Below, in pieces: positions 7,579 through 48,622 of a stretch of DNA of 64,000 bases. Positions within the stretch are counted from its first letter, which is position 1. Each line of letters opens with the position of its first letter. Under the pieces are notes generated by a model. The model was not told where the DNA came from. It searched no databases and saw only the letters and a program-made list of their open reading frames with translations. A program made the translations under genes and the position numbers. The DNA lies in IMG/VR virus record IMGVR_UViG_3300012009_000091, positions 64,001 through 128,000 of that record; one strand, given 5' to 3'. The stretch is from a virus.

Positions 7579-8653
7579 ATCCCTTCTCGGGTTCGGCCGG
7601 GGTACGGTTGATGATACGTTCACAGGTGCCGCTGGGTTAGGTTCTCTAGCCATGTCTGGGTGGTCTCCGTTGAAAGCCTGGACACATCCTCTATACTACA
7701 GCGCAATGGGTCGCTCACCGACAGCGGCGTTGAAGGGGTACGGTACCACCAAACGGCGTCTGTTAGGGTTGCCTGAACCGCGGTCACAGTCCAATCGACA
7801 GCAGTTTCGGAAAACGGGGGAGGAGAGTTCCATGCAGAAGACAGCGCTGGGAAGATTAGTCAGAAAGGCCAAGAATTGGTTGGCACCAGAACTCGGCACT
7901 CTTGCGCGACAAGCAGCTGATCCCGGCCGTCGTACTCTCCGTCCGTCTCTTCGAGCTCCTCTTGCTGTAGCTGGCCTTTCCGCTGCTGCGTATGGAGGCG
8001 CGCAAGGATTAGGATACTTGGGCGATCAAGCTAGTGTAATCGGGCGAGCGCGTGGGTATCGTCAGTTGATGAAAAAGTATGGACCGGAGCTTCACGCGAT
8101 TGCTGAGCAGACACATGTGCCTGTACCTGAAGAGCGGATGCGTGATGTTTATAACGCTCTCTACAAGATGTCTCCAGATGTTGCGAAAGAGCCGACTCTC
8201 GCTGCAGCTCAAATGGCGCCGCTTATTCGTGAAGCTGGTTCTCCGAGTGGGACTATGGAGGGGGCGGAGGGGCCTGTTCCTCGTGTTATGTTGGAGGGGG
8301 GATTGGAACAAATGGCTGTTCCATCTCGTATCCAGTCTGGGATGCCAGACTCGTTTGCGGACCGTACTCAACCATGGGTACGCAGTGCAGTCGGCGCTTT
8401 TGGGGACTACGACTTAAACACGGCGGCCCAACGTGAGATGATGAGAGCTGAGTTTCAGCAACCTGATTTGAAAGCCAAAAGTGACTTGGCGGCTGATCTG
8501 AGTTCGTTGGGTCGTCGACGTATGGAATTGCAAGCTCTCTATCGACAGAAGGCGGATGCTCTGAGAGCTGGAAACCAGACGGCTATTCAAGCTCTTGAAT
8601 CGCGGATTCGCCAACTTCGCACAGGTAGACCAGAGGCAGCGTCGAGGATTTGA
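7556..8653 (+). CDS. putative internal virion (ejected) protein
   Basis: Gly/Ala-rich hydrophobic segments; MQKTA motif at an internal in-frame start (7832) with a strong RBS. Confidence 0.55.
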   Translation: MPALDTAKSLLGFGRGTVDDTFTGAAGLGSLAMSGWSPLKAWTHPLYYSAMGRSPTAALKGYGTTKRRLLGLPEPRSQSNRQQFRKTGEESSMQKTALGRLVRKAKNWLAPELGTLARQAADPGRRTLRPSLRAPLAVAGLSAAAYGGAQGLGYLGDQASVIGRARGYRQLMKKYGPELHAIAEQTHVPVPEERMRDVYNALYKMSPDVAKEPTLAAAQMAPLIREAGSPSGTMEGAEGPVPRVMLEGGLEQMAVPSRIQSGMPDSFADRTQPWVRSAVGAFGDYDLNTAAQREMMRAEFQQPDLKAKSDLAADLSSLGRRRMELQALYRQKADALRAGNQTAIQALESRIRQLRTGRPEAASRI

Positions 8654-11340
8654 TGGAGAAGTTCATCAAAATAGGCGCCAGCTCAGGGGGCCATTGGGAC
8701 TCATTTTACCACATCATGCGCGGAGATCGTGCGGACATGGTGAAATGGGCGGCTGCTGGAAGTTATCATCCACGTATCGAAAGATACCTTGCGACAGAGC
8801 CTTTTACTCGTCGTGACCTCGTGCTCGTCGTGGTTCCTTTAGGAGCTCATGAGGCTTGGGGCTGTAATGTCAATGGAGATGCATTCCAGCAAGAGCAGAT
8901 TGAGCCGGCTCATCGAGATTGGGGTCACGAGAGTTTCGTCCATCACGCCAATGCGTTTGTTCATCATCAGAACAAAGATCCACAGAAAGGATTCGGAAAA
9001 GTACCTATTGCGGTATTTGAACCCGTGATGCGGAGAATCGAAGCCGTCTTCAAGCTTGACCGAGACAAGGCGGATCGTGTCGGGGCTGGCACCTATGTCC
9101 GAAAGCTCGATGAGGGGGGGTCAGCTGATCTCAGCATGGGGTGTTTTCCGGCTGGCACGCTCGTTACTATGGCGGACGGTACTCAGAAACCAATCGAGAC
9201 GGTAGTGGTGGGGGATCTGGTTCTGACGAGTACAGGTCGAGCGCAGCGTGTAACGTCATTACACCCTCGTGAGTACGAGGGGCCACTACTGCGCATCAAA
9301 GTTTTTGGGCAGATAGAAGTGCGAGTTACTCCCGAACACCCGTTTTGGGCCACCCCCCGATCTTCGGTGATCAAAAATCGACGTTGGGTAGGAAAGGAGG
9401 ACGGCGCTCAGTGGGTACACGCAAAGTGTTTGCAGGAAGGGGATTATCTCACCACTCCCGTACTCCAAGAGGTTCTGACTCCGTCATATGCGTCACCTGC
9501 GCTGGCGCGACTGCTAGGATACTACCTCGCTGAGGGTCACGTACTCTATAATAAAAAAGGTGAGTACGTCGGCATCGAGCTGGCTGTAAATCGGATGGAC
9601 GCAGTGCTGGACGAGATCGAAAGCCTGTGTCGTGATTTCGGGTCCAGAAACGCGCCAGCTATCCGTCCACGCACAAATTCCAAACACGCGTTGGCAATTC
9701 AGATATTCGACCCACACTTGGCGGAGCTTTGTTTCAACCACTGTGGGAGTTACGCACGCCACAAGCGACTATCCGAAGATGTCATGTGGTGGGATCCAGA
9801 GTTGCAGCGACAATTGATTGGGGCCTACATTAATGGGGACGGGGGACAGTTGGAATCATGGCAACCTGGGGCTGTGGTCCTCTCCACGTTATCTGATCAT
9901 CTCGCCGCGCAGATCCCGCAGCTTCTCTTTCGTTGTGGCGTCAAATCCAACACTCAGTTGTTACGACATGAATCCGGAGGTGGATTCAATAGCAGTGCCA
10001 CCTTTGAACACCAGATCTACATCGGGAAACATCAAGTTCCGTCGTTGTTGGATGTAGCGCGTCTCAAAATGCCAGAACTGAGTCGTGATACGAACCCTGG
10101 GGCAAAGTTGGAAGGCGGCCTTGTCTTCTCGAAACTCCGAGAGATTTCCACGGAGTTTTTTCAAGGTACGGTATTCAACTTCGAGGTGGAAGAAGACGAG
10201 TCGTATGTGGTGGAGGGCCTAGCTGTACACAATTGCAAGGTGCCCTATGACATTTGTTCCATTTGCGGCCAGGAGTCTAAGTCTGTCGCGAATTATTGTA
10301 CCTGTCTCAAAGATGAGATGTTGAAGATCGAACCGGATGGTCGGATTCACTGTGCCTATAATCCTCGTCCTCGATTCTTCGATCTCAGCATTGTTATTGT
10401 TCGGGCAGCTAAAGAAGCTGCCATCCTAGAAAAGGCCGCGGCAGCGGGTATGGTCATGGATCAGAAAGACCCAGTAGATTGGACGACATCTTCCTTTTCA
10501 TTGGATGATGATTCTGGTCTTTATTTGACTAAAGCCGCCAGCGCGAAGGAAGCTGACACCAAACTAGCGGAAATCGAGAAGAAGCTCCCTGAAGTCTTCC
10601 ATGAGATGGTCTGGCCGATGATACGTTCTGAGGAGGCTCTCCCTGAGAGTCTTATGGATCGGTTGTCGGATCATACTCTCCCTAAAAGTCTGGCCTCTAC
10701 TTCTGCTTGTGGGATTGTCCTTCGCCCGCGTGAGTTCCAGCGTTTGTATCTTAGGCGAACAGGGCGCCCAGAAATGGCTGAGGAATTACACAAAAAGCGG
10801 TGTATTTTTTCTCCGCGTGATAGTCGCCATGCTTATCGTCTCCAATCGGATGACATAGAAGAGAAGATTCTCCCCTTGTTACACGATCTCCTCCCGAAGA
10901 GGAGCGTGTTCCAGCCGTTTGTGAGTAAGCGCATTATCATTGTTCGTCTTCGCGGGGAGAGGCCGACTGAACCAGAACTTGTAGAAAAAACCAGTGAGGC
11001 CCTTGACGAAGTCGGAGAAGAGTACGCAAAATATATCAACGGTCTGGCTCGCTTGCCATCTCTGCTTAAATCTGCGATGGTACGACATGGAGATCTTTAT
11101 GATGCATTTGCGGCAGAATCATATGACCCGATGCGAAAGGTCGCCGGATCTCTTGCATCTATCGTTGGGGCTGGTGTTGGTGTCGTATTGCCGGTATACT
11201 TGATGGCGTCAAAGTGGCGTGCAGATGCGACTCGTGGATATGATCCGGGACTACTTAAGGGAATTGTGGCTGATTACCCCGCCACAACATCCATTGGGGT
11301 GTTGACAGGCCTGCGTTATTTGGGCAAAAGAGGGAAGTGA
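8653..11340 (+). CDS. prohead (capsid maturation) serine protease, intein-containing, with long C-terminal extension
   Basis: NGDAF, FVHHQN and SMG motifs; predicted spliced junction SMG-CKVPYDICSICG; located upstream of the capsid genes. Confidence 0.75.
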   Translation: MEKFIKIGASSGGHWDSFYHIMRGDRADMVKWAAAGSYHPRIERYLATEPFTRRDLVLVVVPLGAHEAWGCNVNGDAFQQEQIEPAHRDWGHESFVHHANAFVHHQNKDPQKGFGKVPIAVFEPVMRRIEAVFKLDRDKADRVGAGTYVRKLDEGGSADLSMGCFPAGTLVTMADGTQKPIETVVVGDLVLTSTGRAQRVTSLHPREYEGPLLRIKVFGQIEVRVTPEHPFWATPRSSVIKNRRWVGKEDGAQWVHAKCLQEGDYLTTPVLQEVLTPSYASPALARLLGYYLAEGHVLYNKKGEYVGIELAVNRMDAVLDEIESLCRDFGSRNAPAIRPRTNSKHALAIQIFDPHLAELCFNHCGSYARHKRLSEDVMWWDPELQRQLIGAYINGDGGQLESWQPGAVVLSTLSDHLAAQIPQLLFRCGVKSNTQLLRHESGGGFNSSATFEHQIYIGKHQVPSLLDVARLKMPELSRDTNPGAKLEGGLVFSKLREISTEFFQGTVFNFEVEEDESYVVEGLAVHNCKVPYDICSICGQESKSVANYCTCLKDEMLKIEPDGRIHCAYNPRPRFFDLSIVIVRAAKEAAILEKAAAAGMVMDQKDPVDWTTSSFSLDDDSGLYLTKAASAKEADTKLAEIEKKLPEVFHEMVWPMIRSEEALPESLMDRLSDHTLPKSLASTSACGIVLRPREFQRLYLRRTGRPEMAEELHKKRCIFSPRDSRHAYRLQSDDIEEKILPLLHDLLPKRSVFQPFVSKRIIIVRLRGERPTEPELVEKTSEALDEVGEEYAKYINGLARLPSLLKSAMVRHGDLYDAFAAESYDPMRKVAGSLASIVGAGVGVVLPVYLMASKWRADATRGYDPGLLKGIVADYPATTSIGVLTGLRYLGKRGK
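9142..10233 (+). mobile_element. intein with LAGLIDADG homing endonuclease (364 aa)
   Basis: Block A CFPAGTLVTMADG, block B VTPEHPF, endonuclease blocks LLGYYLAEG and LIGAYINGDG, block F/G VFNFEVEEDESYVVEGLAVHN followed by +1 Cys. Confidence 0.95.
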
Positions 11341-14373: not shown

Positions 14374-15450
14374 ATGAATAGGATGAGTGGAACCAACGAC
14401 CCCATGCAGTTCAATCAGGCTTTCGTGGCCTATTTGGACAATGAAGGGGGAATGCAGAAGATGGCCGCAGCCGGTCGTGCTTTCGTACGTGATCACCTGA
14501 GAGAAGAGTCGGCAGCTCGTCGACTTCTTCCTCCGGAAAGGCTGTCGCCGCAGAGCCCCAGAGTAATTCCGTCGCTCAACTCCGACACGCTAGTTGTGCG
14601 GAAGGACCTTGAGCCTGGGAGCCGCGCCGTTTCATTGACATTTGGCGCTTCTCCTGCAGCCTCGATCGTCAGTACGCAGCGAATCGATATTCCGGTCTTC
14701 ACGATCAGCTCAGAGATGTTCCATATCCGCGAGCAGCATCTGTTGGCGTATGAGGCTCCAGTCACGCGACTCGTCGAAGATAACACTGGGAAGGACATCC
14801 AAGAGATCGAAGATCTCGAGTGGAGGACCTACTCGGAGGCGGCTGTCGTATCAACGGGTCGCGTGGTTCGAGGAGCACAGGCGGCGGCAGATGCTGCTGT
14901 TCACGGCAATGGCTCTGGATTTCGTGGCGAAATTGAGCGTCCGGATTTTGTGGACCTTGCCAACGTTATGTTGGATGACGGCAATCGGAAGCGTCTCAAC
15001 AAAATCTGGATGAACGACATCGACTTCAACACTATCTTGAAGTGGACGGTCGAAGATGTCGGATCGGCTCATCAGGGTGAGACGTTGGTCAAGGGGTACA
15101 CCTACGATAAGGTTCTGAACTACCTCATCGTGCGTACCATCAAGACCGACCTGCTTCAGACGGGCAACGTCTTTGGTTATGCCGAACCGGAGTTTCTCGG
15201 GTTCTTCTTCATCCTGAATGACGTGAAGTTCTACATCGACAAGGTGGCGAACCTCATTCGGTGGCAGGCCTGGGAAGACATCGCAATTTCCATTTCGAAC
15301 ATCTCCTCGGTTGCCAAGGGGGAGCTGTACAACGGTCAAGGTGGGGGGGACAACAGCCCCGACGCGTTGCCCGAGGAAGAGGACCTGTTCCAGCAGACGA
15401 ACCCGGTGTTCCAGGGTGGAACGGCGTTCCCGTCAGTCACTCTCTACTAA
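14374..15450 (+). CDS. major capsid protein (HK97-like fold, inferred)
   Basis: 358 aa; LREESAARRLLPP N-arm pattern; strongly biased codon use; follows protease, scaffold and decoration genes; KMA near the N-terminus. Confidence 0.75.
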   Translation: MNRMSGTNDPMQFNQAFVAYLDNEGGMQKMAAAGRAFVRDHLREESAARRLLPPERLSPQSPRVIPSLNSDTLVVRKDLEPGSRAVSLTFGASPAASIVSTQRIDIPVFTISSEMFHIREQHLLAYEAPVTRLVEDNTGKDIQEIEDLEWRTYSEAAVVSTGRVVRGAQAAADAAVHGNGSGFRGEIERPDFVDLANVMLDDGNRKRLNKIWMNDIDFNTILKWTVEDVGSAHQGETLVKGYTYDKVLNYLIVRTIKTDLLQTGNVFGYAEPEFLGFFFILNDVKFYIDKVANLIRWQAWEDIAISISNISSVAKGELYNGQGGGDNSPDALPEEEDLFQQTNPVFQGGTAFPSVTLY

Positions 15451-45191: not shown

Positions 45192-45223
45192 GAAGACGGG
45201 AGGCCGCGCTCTCGTCTTCTTAG
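45192..45223 (+). terminator. terminator-like hairpin
   Basis: GAAGACGGGAG-GCCGCG-CTCTCGTCTTC then TTAG. Confidence 0.6.
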
Positions 45224-45229
45224 TATAAG
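45223..45229 (+). promoter_or_regulatory. GTATAAG promoter-like motif
   Basis: Fused to the hairpin+TTAG; upstream of the kinase gene. Confidence 0.6.
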
Positions 45230-45309
45230 GTCGCACGTTGTTCAGTCGTGTAAACCGCGATATACTCTCGCCATCCTCGTAGAGGGTCAAATTCATTTCG
45301 GAGGAATTC

Positions 45310-46023
45310 ATGTCGTATAGTGTTACGATCGTTGAAGGGATCATCGGCGTTGGAAAGAGTACTGTCAGCCAAGAGCTGGGCAAAGCGCTCGAAAAGATCT
45401 CGGAGAAACCGTCTTTGGTTCTTATGGAACCTGACGAGAAAGACAATGCCAATCCCTACTTGGTCGATTTTTACAAGAACCCCGCTCGATGGGCATTTAC
45501 CATGCAAATCCACCTCCTGAGTCGAAGATACCAGATGCATGAACGAGCCCAATGGGCCTGTCTAGACGAAGCTGGCCATGTCGTCTTGGATCGTTCATAC
45601 TTTGGAGATACTGCTTTCGCTCGTCTTCAGATCAAGAATGGAGATATGGAAGAACGCGAGTTCGAGACCTACACCAAGCTGTACCACAATATGCAGGCGC
45701 ATGTTCTGAAGCCTACTGTCTGTCTTCGGTTGTTGGTGAGTCCAGAGACTGCCATCGAACGCATTAATCGGCGTCTTTTTGAACGCGAGGGACGACAATG
45801 TGAGTCCGGTATTACGATTCAGTATCTTCAAGATCTCGACGATGAGATCACCCACATGGCCAATGTTCTGCGTCAACAGGGTGTGCTGATCCTAGACGTC
45901 CCCTGGGATGTGGAGCGGGACAACGCCGATGCACGCGAGAAAGCCGTTCAGAGTCTTGCCCGACGTATCCACAGTTACCGGCCCGTTGATCCTTTTCTCG
46001 ATCTTCACCGGAAAACCGTATGA
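45310..46023 (+). CDS. deoxynucleoside kinase family protein
   Basis: IVEGIIGVGKST P-loop, FYKNPARWAFTMQ, LDRS and a lid R-x-G-R-x-x-E. Confidence 0.88.
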   Translation: MSYSVTIVEGIIGVGKSTVSQELGKALEKISEKPSLVLMEPDEKDNANPYLVDFYKNPARWAFTMQIHLLSRRYQMHERAQWACLDEAGHVVLDRSYFGDTAFARLQIKNGDMEEREFETYTKLYHNMQAHVLKPTVCLRLLVSPETAIERINRRLFEREGRQCESGITIQYLQDLDDEITHMANVLRQQGVLILDVPWDVERDNADAREKAVQSLARRIHSYRPVDPFLDLHRKTV

Positions 46024-46562
46024 GCAAAACGCATTCATTTACCGGGAGGGAGATTCGATTTGACCACCCCGAACAGATTGATGTTTGCATTGAAGACATT
46101 GCCCACTCCCTGTCGTTGATCTGCCGGTTCAATGGCCATTGCCACGAGTTCTATTCTGTAGCGCAACATTCTGTATTCGTCAGTTCTCTACTTGATGATG
46201 AGCATGCGCTACCTGGCTTGATGCACGATGCTGCAGAGGCGTATATCGGGGACATCATTGTCCCTGTTCGAGAGACATTTGGCGCTCATCGAATCGATCA
46301 AGTGGAACAGGCGATAGCCTGGAGAATCCAGGAAGTGTTAGAGATTTCTGATTGGACCAATAATCCCGTTGTCTACGCCGCAGATAAGCAGATGTTGGCC
46401 ATTGAGGTGCAATCGTTGATGCACTCTAACGCGTTGAATTGGCCAGATGTACGTAATGCTCGAGTAGATCCAACACGTCAATGCCGGTCCTGGCATCCAA
46501 CTCATGCTGAGCATCAATTTTTGATCAGGTACAAGCATTTGAAGTCAATCACAAGAGTATAG
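46020..46562 (+). CDS. HD-domain 5'-deoxynucleotidase-like phosphohydrolase (YfdR-like)
   Basis: DIAHSLSLICRFNGH, YSVAQHS and LMHDAAEAYIGD. Confidence 0.85.
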   Translation: MSKTHSFTGREIRFDHPEQIDVCIEDIAHSLSLICRFNGHCHEFYSVAQHSVFVSSLLDDEHALPGLMHDAAEAYIGDIIVPVRETFGAHRIDQVEQAIAWRIQEVLEISDWTNNPVVYAADKQMLAIEVQSLMHSNALNWPDVRNARVDPTRQCRSWHPTHAEHQFLIRYKHLKSITRV

Positions 46563-46710
46563 AGCAGTCTATGTTTATGCAGACGTGCCCAGTGCATAAC
46601 TAGTTCTGAGAGCGAGGTCTGTTCCACGGATCTCGTCTTAGCGTCTGTTGCAGATGTCATTGAAGCCAGTGTACACTTTCGCTGAGTAGTTGTGGGACGC
46701 GGAGAATCAC

Positions 46711-47853
46711 ATGTCGTTGCCAGAGTTCTTATCCAGGAAGGTCGATTCGGAGTCCCTTGTTCAAAAACTAGCTCGAGCTGCTCGTACTTCAACACCGGTC
46801 TATCATGGATCTCCAGTTAGGGCTGATATACTTCAGCCCAGACTTGAACACGGTGATCCGATGGTTCCTGACGCGGTCTTCGCTTCCCCGTTTCGAGATT
46901 TTGCGCTCGCCTATGCTGGTCGAAAGTGGAGCGATCGTGATTTCAATCAGAGCATACGACGGAAGAGCGGACAACATGAAATGATCATGCGGGAGATGCG
47001 ACCGAATGCTATCGAGGACACTTATAAGAATGTTCCAGGCTATCTCTATCATTTGGCGCCACAGGAATTCGAGCGAACACAGAGACCAGGATCTACATGG
47101 GAGGTCATCAGTACCAAACCTGTTAAACCGCTCCGCGTAGAAAGCGTAACAGATGTTCTTCAAGCATTAGAGAGTGAACCATCGGTTCGATTAGAGAGGT
47201 ATGATCCTGGCCATCCTGATACTCGGGCCGCGATACGAAGAATGGTCGCCCGGATGAACGAGATGGAAGATCCGTCCGAATATCGTGATTGGCGTTTGGA
47301 GGGGGCTCCGGATGAGATTCGTCGCCTCTTAGAGGAAGAGGAGGCACGGCTCAAGACGGCGAAAGCTCCTGTTATTCAAGCCACATCCTTGGACGATCTG
47401 CGAGATGCCCTGCAGCTCGAGCAAGATCAATGGGGTGATGTGGTATGTCCCAGTCCTCGGGATAAAGTTTTCGTGATCAAGGACAACGATGGTATCGTCG
47501 GTTCTGTACGAGTTAATACTAAACCGCGTGAAACTTGGGATGATGAAGCTGATAAAGTGATGTCGAAGCTGGACCCTCAAGTGTGGGTAACTTCTATTGT
47601 AGTCCGAAAGGATCGGCGAGGCGAAGGTGTCGGTACTGCTTTGCAGCAGAGCTTACAGCAGAAGTATGACCGGATCGCTTTAGGGACAGGGGAGAGGTCT
47701 GACGAGTCAATGAAGCATCTGAGCAAGAGACTCGGATTCAAAAAGGTTCTGTTCCGAAACACAGGAGATGTGAAAGACGTTCATTTCTGGGAACGGGACA
47801 AGACGGCTTCAATTATCAAAAGGGTTCTGTATTCCAAACTTCACGCCGTATGA
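46711..47853 (+). CDS. ADP-ribosyltransferase-like domain fused to a GNAT acetyltransferase
   Basis: ART-like YHGS...VFASP...GYLY...WEVIS; GNAT motif A VRKDRRGEGVGTAL and KRLGF; domains bounded by KLA, KTA and KTA. Confidence 0.65.
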   Translation: MSLPEFLSRKVDSESLVQKLARAARTSTPVYHGSPVRADILQPRLEHGDPMVPDAVFASPFRDFALAYAGRKWSDRDFNQSIRRKSGQHEMIMREMRPNAIEDTYKNVPGYLYHLAPQEFERTQRPGSTWEVISTKPVKPLRVESVTDVLQALESEPSVRLERYDPGHPDTRAAIRRMVARMNEMEDPSEYRDWRLEGAPDEIRRLLEEEEARLKTAKAPVIQATSLDDLRDALQLEQDQWGDVVCPSPRDKVFVIKDNDGIVGSVRVNTKPRETWDDEADKVMSKLDPQVWVTSIVVRKDRRGEGVGTALQQSLQQKYDRIALGTGERSDESMKHLSKRLGFKKVLFRNTGDVKDVHFWERDKTASIIKRVLYSKLHAV

Positions 47854-47958
47854 CGGCTTTTTTGTCTTCAACTATCGCTTTGATTTTGCTTCTTGGATCA
47901 CGTGCTAGTTCTTTTCTGTCGCTTTCTGTGAATGGAGAGGCGTCTCTTGACTTTCCAA

Positions 47959-47965
47959 GTATAAG
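47959..47965 (+). promoter_or_regulatory. GTATAAG promoter-like motif
   Basis: Intergenic; followed by a structured leader and the DinG unit. Confidence 0.6.
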
Positions 47966-48104
47966 ACCTAAACTAGCTCTTCCAGCTAGATACCAAGTGG
48001 GCTATTCAGCCCGATGAGACAGCTGGGGCTGAGATCACGATTTCCGATGGTGTGGAAAGAATCTCTAGCCCCAGCTGTCATAATTTTGAACAGAAGGAGG
48101 AAGA

Positions 48105-48371
48105 ATGCACGTGCTCATCCATTGTTTACACTGTCTCCAAGAGACGAGAGAGAATCCTCGAGAAGACGCACGATTGGAGGTCGAACTCGAATTCGAAACT
48201 GGCGCCGATGTCGGAGTCTTGCACTTACGGTGTGTTCGATGCAACCGTTCGATCAGATCGTTTTCAACCGTTGTACCCTCGGAAATACGAGATCTACCAA
48301 ATATGGCTGCGAATCCGTCCGACGGACAGGACGAAGAGGATGAGGGTAAACTAAAGAAGTATCTCAACTAG
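48105..48371 (+). CDS. small Zn-binding protein
   Basis: CLHC...CVRC; AAGGAGG RBS. Confidence 0.6.
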   Translation: MHVLIHCLHCLQETRENPREDARLEVELEFETGADVGVLHLRCVRCNRSIRSFSTVVPSEIRDLPNMAANPSDGQDEEDEGKLKKYLN

Positions 48372-48379
48372 GAGGTGAA

Positions 48380-48604
48380 GTGAATTTCGATGACCTGATG
48401 AGTCGAATCGAGCGACTTCAAGAACAGTGGCAAGCTGTCGAAGGTGATTACAAGCCCGCGAAGAAGCGACGTCAGCGCTTGAGTAAGCGGATCTCCAGAC
48501 TTCATGCTCAATTGAAGGATGGATTGGCAAATCAACAATTTGTCGATCAACAACGTTTCCATTCCATGGAAGAGAATCTCCGTTCACTGGGAGTGATCAG
48601 TTGA
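48380..48604 (+). CDS. small coiled-coil protein
   Basis: AGGAGGT RBS. Confidence 0.55.
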   Translation: MNFDDLMSRIERLQEQWQAVEGDYKPAKKRRQRLSKRISRLHAQLKDGLANQQFVDQQRFHSMEENLRSLGVIS

Positions 48605-48622
48605 ACATAGGAAGGTGACTAG

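Follow-up and report, generated by a model that had tools for sequence, protein, structure and literature searches.

A predicted ADP-ribosyltransferase-fold module joined to a GNAT acetyltransferase at a conserved short joint in an uncultured phage

Is a two-domain enzyme encoded by an uncultured phage carried in the virion, cut and injected, or is it made in the infected cell? This question is raised by a gene at positions 46711-47853 of a 64,000-nucleotide (nt) stretch of DNA (the window), which corresponds to bases 64001-128000 of the IMG/VR record IMGVR_UViG_3300012009_000091, the 167,069-bp genome of an uncultured virus that has direct terminal repeats and was judged complete, and whose terminase shares only ~27% identity with any GenBank phage. 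A preliminary description of the window had read the product, here called P0001, as an ADP-ribosyltransferase (ART) fused to a GNAT acetyltransferase with Lys-x-Ala (K-x-A) sites at its domain boundaries, and had proposed that it is packaged, cut and injected in the manner of T4 Alt. We report good support for the assignment of its two domains and for reading their boundaries as cassette edges, and we lean towards viewing P0001 as a domesticated enzyme of two cassettes that the infected cell produces, in which it would resemble T4 ModA/ModB rather than Alt. The gene and its modules are as follows.

46711-47853, plus strand: coding sequence of P0001, the ART-fold and GNAT protein; open reading frame (ORF) of 380 aa
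46699-46702, plus strand: Shine-Dalgarno GGAG, 8 nt 5' of the P0001 ATG, read from the sequence
46786-47364, plus strand: predicted ART-fold module, residues ~26-218 (H32-G-S, F57, Y68, E95, E131 and a three-helix C-terminal extension), from conservation, AlphaFold2 (AF2) modelling and fold matches
47374-47805, plus strand: GNAT acetyltransferase module, residues ~222-365, from Pfam, PHROGs, ESM Atlas structures and secondary structure

The ORF and the motifs named in the preliminary description (a leader ending in VQKLA, YHGS, VFASP, WEVIS, RLKTA, DKTA and a tail) were all found in their places: QKLA at residues 18-21, YHGS at 31-34, VFASP at 56-60, WEVIS at 130-134, LKTA at 214-217, RRGEGVG at 302-308 and DKTA at 363-366, followed by a tail of 14 residues. 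The public call for this gene (P0002, 330 aa) begins at Met51 and leaves out window positions 46711-46860; since it thereby omits the conserved Y-H-G-S strand, database copies of P0001 lack the putative catalytic histidine. A tblastn search for relatives of P0001 in 50,697 GenBank phage records matched none, a synteny search of IMG/VR through the neighbouring helicase found no relatives, and a profile scan of IMG/VR led to a single locus.

Firstly, we asked which fold the N-terminal module adopts. Modelled with AF2 on an alignment of 83 sequences, it reached a predicted local distance difference test score (pLDDT) of 91 and a predicted TM-score (pTM) of 0.81. Foldseek against the PDB placed the rifampin ADP-ribosyltransferase Arr on top (E 0.048, probability 0.84), with nothing below E 0.001, and sequence searches of the PDB with P0001 and with the 83-sequence profile gave no meaningful match. 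In an unbiased VIA search, which is independent of Foldseek, 21 of the 25 best rows were ART-fold (top Z 8.1), and in a second look all 50 of 50 rows were ART-fold chains, with Z up to 7.9. The top unbiased match, 9ld3, is an ADP-ribose/adenosine-phosphate complex (Z 8.1, 75 residues aligned). Other matches are TreX/TreTu (Z 7.8-7.9), Arr (7.2), pertussis S1 (7.0), PARPs and diphtheria toxin (5-6.5) and mouse tRNA 2'-phosphotransferase (Tpt1; 5.8), and the unbiased search further returned Scabin, PARP16, cholera-like toxins and a domain of the cyanophage A4 pre-ejectosome; the paper on that pre-ejectosome discusses no ART domain. Within the 83-sequence alignment E95 and G110 are invariant, and Y31, H32, G33, S34, F57, Y68, W73, D75, D77, Q80 and E131 are at least 90% conserved; among these, Y31-H32-G33-S34, F57, Y68 and E131 fall on AF2-predicted strands, F57 being a phenylalanine at the first tyrosine position of H-Y-E enzymes in more than 90% of the family. 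Because the second-look rows are unanimous and the module combines an H-G-S first strand with an aromatic/Tyr pair and a conserved glutamate on a late strand, the clear reading of the model is an ART fold of the H-Y-E type, and NAD+-dependent ADP-ribosyl transfer is its probable chemistry. Three features are specific to the family: a W-x-D-x-D-x-x-Q loop, the invariant E95 and the three-helix C-terminal extension (residues 169-218).

An exhaustive profile-free search recovered 276 representative relatives of the module at E ≤1e-3, with 52 at E ≤1e-30. By its sequence relationships, the module belongs to an unnamed, widespread family that lies outside ART-PolyVal. The majority of the relatives are parts of polyvalent proteins of 600-2600 residues, which also carry InPase, SNF2 helicase, NUDIX, HD, metallophosphoesterase, 2H phosphoesterase, P-loop kinase and GNAT domains, and the ART-like module also occurs alone in many proteins of ~190-210 residues. 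In a census of the fusion partners in 64 multidomain relatives, the LigD_N 3'-phosphoesterase was found 9 times, GNAT 7, SNF2 and the AAA_18 kinase 5 each, InPase and NUDIX 4 each, HD 3 and DNA ligase 2; a GNAT stands before or after the ART-like module in P0103, P0110 and P0117. Pfam DUF6886 (PF21820) matches P0001 at 22.5 bits over residues 101-156 only, below its 27-bit cut-off. Since relatives of the module match DUF6886 too (16-37.8 bits, three of them exceeding the cut-off), a distant relationship to this family is likely on the profile scores; DUF6886 is also found in 12% of the members of the ESM Atlas cluster nearest to the module, and the literature searched held no mention of it. 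Membership of ART-PolyVal (PF18760; H-Y-D) was considered and rejected, as the profile does not match: it found nothing in the genome at E ≤10, nor did hmmscan of P0001 at E ≤1. BFVD entries named ART-PolyVal bear a weak structural likeness to the module (E 0.04-0.1).

Secondly, the C-terminal half of P0001 is a divergent GNAT acetyltransferase. PF13508 matches at E 1.5e-7 and 32.1 bits (cut-off 27) and PF00583 at 27.7 bits (cut-off 20.7), the GNAT Pfam matches spanning residues 235-344, and acetyltransferase families of PHROGs match as well. The acetyl-CoA pyrophosphate motif (R/Q-x-x-G-x-G/A) is intact as R303-G-E-G-V-G308, with a helix after it at 308-326. The P0001 model in the ESM Atlas superimposes on GNAT clusters with TM 0.68-0.74 from residue 222 to about 362-377. 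In the full-length AF2 model the GNAT half has a pLDDT of only ~45-55, yet a GNAT-like secondary structure, and because of this low score it was not used in the fold search. Relatives of this half sought among proteins of similar or greater length were not found, leaving it a sequence orphan, nor does it specifically resemble the GNATs that the polyvalent relatives P0103, P0110 and P0117 carry. The ART-GNAT fusion of the preliminary description is thus borne out on both sides, by the AF2 score and ART-fold VIA matches of the first module and by Pfam scores above cut-off for the second.

Thirdly, we examined the K-x-A sites. A joint profile was built from foreign joints and applied to every one of the genome's 470 K-x-[ASG] sites, with the following result for P0001.

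46765-46773, plus strand: K19-L-A21, a weak copy of the joint in the N-terminal leader; profile score -0.5, rank 313/470
47353-47361, plus strand: K215-T-A217, the joint between the ART-fold and GNAT modules; profile score 8.8 bits, rank 46/470
47800-47808, plus strand: K364-T-A366, where the GNAT fold ends, with the 14-residue helical tail after it; profile score 8.2 bits, rank 55/470

The number of K-x-A in P0001 is not above chance (3 found where composition predicts 1.64, P=0.21), and it is their position that is informative. Of the 110 homologous modules whose upstream sequence was long enough, 71% carry a K-x-[ASG] in the 15 residues preceding YHGS, most often at a distance of 5-8 residues, against a same-protein background of 17%; for K-x-A specifically the figures are 55% and 7.6%. 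Downstream, 82% of 67 modules have a K-x-[ASG] no more than 12 residues from the domain end, where the background is 29%. These flanks agree with the claim that the K-x-A sites lie at domain boundaries and indicate that the positions in P0001 coincide, not by chance, with a joint conserved in homologs. The joint has the consensus hydrophobic-x-E-L-E-K-[T/Q]-A-A and is often doubled, two copies enclosing a short aromatic peptide. Since the same motif is present at InPase starts (P0011, P0024) and at an InPase-2H boundary (P0083), it is separate from the ART fold. Stand-alone relatives start with a leader of 12-20 residues that ends in the joint, for example M-x-F-F-x-G-F-x-x-E-L-x-K-x-A; the N-terminal leader of P0001 reads MSLPEFLSRKVDSESLVQKLA. 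The paired joints around one module are identical at 5 or more of 6 positions in 14% of cases, against 1% for joints of different proteins.

An IMG/VR relative, the 621-aa protein of L005:1396-3261, has near-identical 13-residue joints, EKQSMLDGIRKV / KKQSMLGGIRKV, around an ART-like module that is interrupted by an insertion of ~200 residues. Its gene lies directly 5' of L005:3321-9587, which encodes a 2088-aa fused beta-beta' RNA polymerase, and the source genome has a fused beta-beta' RNA polymerase gene like that of L005.

The source phage appears to use the same motif elsewhere, because the profile made from foreign joints ranks sites in its head-block ORFs and capsid highest. Across the whole genome K-x-A exceeds expectation (231 against 164), with a strong excess in several head-block ORFs, and the top profile sites lie mainly in such K-x-A-rich ORFs (window 6439, 16655, 11593 and 8650; genome 58566 and 46326). 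The major-capsid-like protein (window 14374-15450, plus strand) has a good joint site at residue 29, GGMQ-KMA-AAGR, a place near the N-terminus that would be as expected for propeptide removal. Searches of the head-block ORFs with PHROGs, Pfam and the PDB identified only the major-head-protein-like ORF and an intein; the latter, with Hint and LAGLIDADG homing-endonuclease domains, occupies residues ~160-550 of an 896-aa ORF (window 8650-11340, plus strand).

A comparison of two related phages indicates that an effector module was gained or lost exactly at this conserved short joint. Contig L002 (JGI, 11.7 kb) is syntenic with the source genome at 147-157 kb, with protein identities of 48-68%. 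Its protein P0011 (806 residues) is composed, in order, of DUF4269, an HExxH domain, EPLKEA, the ART-like module, GALKEA and InPase. The ortholog in the source genome (460 aa, L011:6666-8048, genome 152666-154048) is composed of an HELGH domain, EPLKEA and InPase; it has one joint, and the module is missing where P0011 carries it between two K-E-A joints. The module of P0011 is also the nearest relative of that of P0001 (58% over 202 residues), their divergence is about the same as that of the flanking orthologs, and K215-T-A217 of P0001 corresponds to the second K-E-A of P0011, at the module-InPase junction. The preliminary description had asked whether homologs swap domains at K-x-A sites; this pair and the flank statistics answer that they do. 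In the same syntenic region, three tandem paralogous genes of ~350-365 codons (L011:1637-4781, genome 147637-150781) are kept as a triplet in L002.

We then considered the company in which the P0001 gene is found, which comprises the following features.

45223-45229, plus strand: GTATAAG, a promoter-like motif heading the unit; nearest plus-strand copy 5' of the P0001 gene
45310-46023, plus strand: deoxynucleoside kinase gene, first cistron (Pfam dNK, E 1.1e-33)
46020-46562, plus strand: second cistron, from the ORF list, encoding a 180-aa protein that has an H-D motif (LMHDAAEAYIGD); the HD reading comes from the motif alone
47845-47864, plus strand: terminator-like hairpin GCCGT-ATG-ACGGC followed by T6, overlapping the P0001 stop codon
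47959-47965, plus strand: next GTATAAG, start of the unit that comes after, with small ORFs and a DinG-type helicase

The window contains 15 copies of GTATAAG where 2.8 are expected; its plus-strand copies lie only in the non-structural part and never precede plus-strand structural genes. The upstream regions of the genome held no enriched 7-mer besides GTATAAG and words resembling ribosome-binding sites. The statement that no GTATAAG lies directly upstream of the P0001 gene is literally true, but the unit to which the gene belongs begins with the copy at 45223: the gene is the last cistron of a GTATAAG-headed unit, apparently co-transcribed with the kinase gene and the H-D-motif gene. The 148-nt gap on its 5' side shows no significant RNA structure (z -0.77), and the second-cistron protein has no Pfam match at 1e-3. 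The arrangement of the unit (45223-47864) mirrors fusions seen among the relatives, in which the module is joined to an HD domain in P0013 and to a P-loop kinase in P0012 and P0024. Between the P0001 gene and the helicase, some 770 nt (47854-48622) contain only short overlapping ORFs of 55-109 codons, behind the GTATAAG at 47959.

Because its gene closes a GTATAAG unit shared with a kinase and an H-D-motif gene, P0001 is most likely made in the infected cell. P0001 would have been assembled from two standard cassettes of phage polyvalent proteins, an ART-fold module of the H-Y-E type and a divergent GNAT; the joint motif, which borders the ART-like module on both sides, would mark the point where modules come and go in the relatives; and the pair would now stand alone as the last cistron of its unit, expressed with non-structural genes and using NAD+ and acetyl-CoA to modify host targets or targets linked to nucleic acids or nucleotides. 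The enzymatic activity, the targets and the timing of expression are what we infer here, and the K-x-A copies in P0001 would be inherited joints rather than sites used there. We hold this as a reading only somewhat favoured over its negation, and several observations weigh against it. The 148-nt gap could hold an unrecognised promoter, for example a late one; the sites K215 and K364 fit the joint profile fairly well, in the top 12% of genome sites, so that cleavage there is possible; the nearest relatives of the module are all polyvalent-type proteins; the structural Z values of 7-8 are middling when taken singly; and polyvalent proteins are generally thought to be packaged in the virion (PMC5512222).

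On an axis separate from the question of packaging, the ART-fold module might act on nucleic-acid ends or nucleotides, by ADP-ribosylation of RNA or DNA or in an NAD+-dependent repair or anti-defence step, in concert with the kinase and HD-motif enzymes encoded alongside. We regard this as a tentative possibility. The commonest partners of the module are enzymes of nucleic-acid ends and nucleotides (LigD_N in 9 of the 64 proteins of the census, P-loop kinases in 5, InPase and NUDIX in 4 each, HD in 3, DNA ligase in 2, and also 2H), the window's sequence of kinase, H-D-motif and ART-GNAT genes echoes the fusions of the relatives, and both the top match 9ld3 and the mouse tRNA 2'-phosphotransferase point the same way. 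The conserved residue set of Tpt1/KptA is, however, R-H-R-R, and that of the module is H-Y-E; ARTs that modify proteins (TreX, pertussis S1, PARPs) are about equally good matches; and the H-D-motif protein of the window does not specifically resemble the HD domain found in P0013. Moreover, co-occurrence is weak evidence of a shared pathway, since polyvalent proteins mix unrelated activities.

Spelled out after T4 Alt, the model of the preliminary description would have P0001 loaded into the prohead, cut at its K-x-A sites by the head-maturation protease, and injected with the DNA as a free ART and a free acetyltransferase that modify host targets before phage genes are expressed. In its favour, the joints are conserved around the module in relatives, including stand-alone ones whose leader ends in K-x-A; the foreign-joint profile ranks sites of head-block ORFs highest, among them residue 29 of the capsid protein; K-x-A is enriched across the genome and above all in several head-block ORFs; and Iyer et al. 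2017 (PMC5512222) predict the packaging and processing of polyvalent proteins. The gene itself fits poorly: it is 21 kb away from the head genes and belongs to a nucleotide-metabolism unit under a GTATAAG of the non-structural kind, its K-x-A count is at chance level, and the N-terminal site that would be needed as a targeting and cleavage signal scores only -0.5 (rank 313/470). No protease was found in the source genome with the Peptidase_S78, S77, CLP_protease or MPTase-PolyVal profiles, and the literature on the cleavage motifs of prohead proteases yielded no Lys-x-Ala code. The step from domains and joints to a packaged, cut and injected P0001 is therefore not supported, given the non-structural company of the gene, the degenerate K19 site and the want of an identified protease, and we consider the model unlikely for this protein. 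One side observation touches on this question. The HELGH domain (HExxH, zincin-like) of the 460-aa protein at L011:6666-8048, which has no Pfam MPTase-PolyVal match, is a candidate reader of the joint. Elsewhere in the genome, a 239-aa protein (L010:9459-10178, genome 9459-10178) matches sigma-70 region 3 at 27.6 bits, above cut-off, and its counterparts adjoin polyvalent-protein genes in contigs L006 and L008.

A bolder version of packaging, to which we give a similarly low probability, would make the joint a targeting-and-cleavage code shared across a clade, a large group of uncultured phages whose RNA polymerase is a beta-beta' fusion. Cassettes could then be shuffled from gene to gene without losing their loading into the capsid or their release, and P0001, though encoded in a nucleotide-metabolism unit, would be packaged, cut at K215 (and at K19 and K364) by a protease of an unrecognised family and injected as two host-modifying enzymes. 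Finally, that the ART-fold module is catalytically dead and serves the GNAT as an NAD+/ADP-ribose binder or docking domain, as the phenylalanine at the first H-Y-E tyrosine in more than 90% of the family could suggest, is quite improbable, since H32-G-S, Y68, E131, D75, D77 and Q80 are at least 90% conserved and E95 and G110 invariant in 83 diverged relatives, a pattern that counts as an active site under selection, and since the module exists alone in many proteins of ~190-210 residues.

Like T4 Alt and ModA/ModB, P0001 would be a phage-encoded ART-fold enzyme, and such enzymes are presumed to retarget host machinery. T4 Alt is packaged and is encoded with late/baseplate genes, and ModA/ModB are not packaged; the P0001 gene, which lies among nucleotide-metabolism genes, is in this respect nearer to ModA/ModB than to Alt. 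The T4 enzymes belong to the R-S-E clade, whereas the first strand of P0001 has a histidine (YHGS) in place of the arginine and is of the H-Y-E type, and T4 has no GNAT fusion; Alt and ModA/ModB would thus be functional analogies drawn from a different ART clade. In T4 Alt, an N-terminal targeting peptide that ends in a protease site can load the enzyme into the head (PMC5512222). The caution for P0001 is that joint motifs may be inherited with the cassette and alone are no proof of packaging.

Among solved structures, the best matches are the small bacterial H-Y-D/E ARTs Arr and TreX/TreTu, which share the H-G-[ST] first strand and superimpose on the module core with Z 7.0-7.9 over 94-109 aligned residues at a root-mean-square deviation of 3.5-4.9. 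Identity is only 14-20%, and the W-x-D-x-D-x-x-Q loop, E95 and the three-helix extension set the module apart. No sequence family other than DUF6886, which has no known function, matches it repeatedly, and the DUF6886 match is weak.

The closest known kind of P0001 is the polyvalent protein. As in those described by Iyer et al. (PMC5512222), two unrelated effector domains from a shared pool are joined in it, and the relatives of its module carry the InPase, SNF2, NUDIX, HD, GNAT, kinase and 2H domains of such proteins. Unlike typical ones, it has just two modules in 380 residues and its gene lies outside the structural block; unlike those of the same account, its first module does not match ART-PolyVal (H-Y-D) and its GNAT is an orphan by sequence. 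The pairing itself is not the undescribed system that the preliminary description had supposed, since one GNAT family of phage polyvalent proteins typically has an ART neighbour and the combination is thus already on record in that account. The K-x-A joint and the gain or loss of cassettes at it are not encountered in the passages of it that were consulted. What is new, then, is the predicted ART assignment of the unnamed module, the quantified joint motif and the exact gain or loss of a cassette at a joint between two phages. A fold and a probable chemistry are now assigned to a widespread module of phage multi-enzyme proteins (276 representative clusters), and the gain or loss just described offers direct evidence, from comparison, for the assembly of such proteins out of motif-bounded cassettes. 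Should the joint turn out to be a protease site, cargo proteins and their cut points would become predictable from sequence in many uncultured phages.

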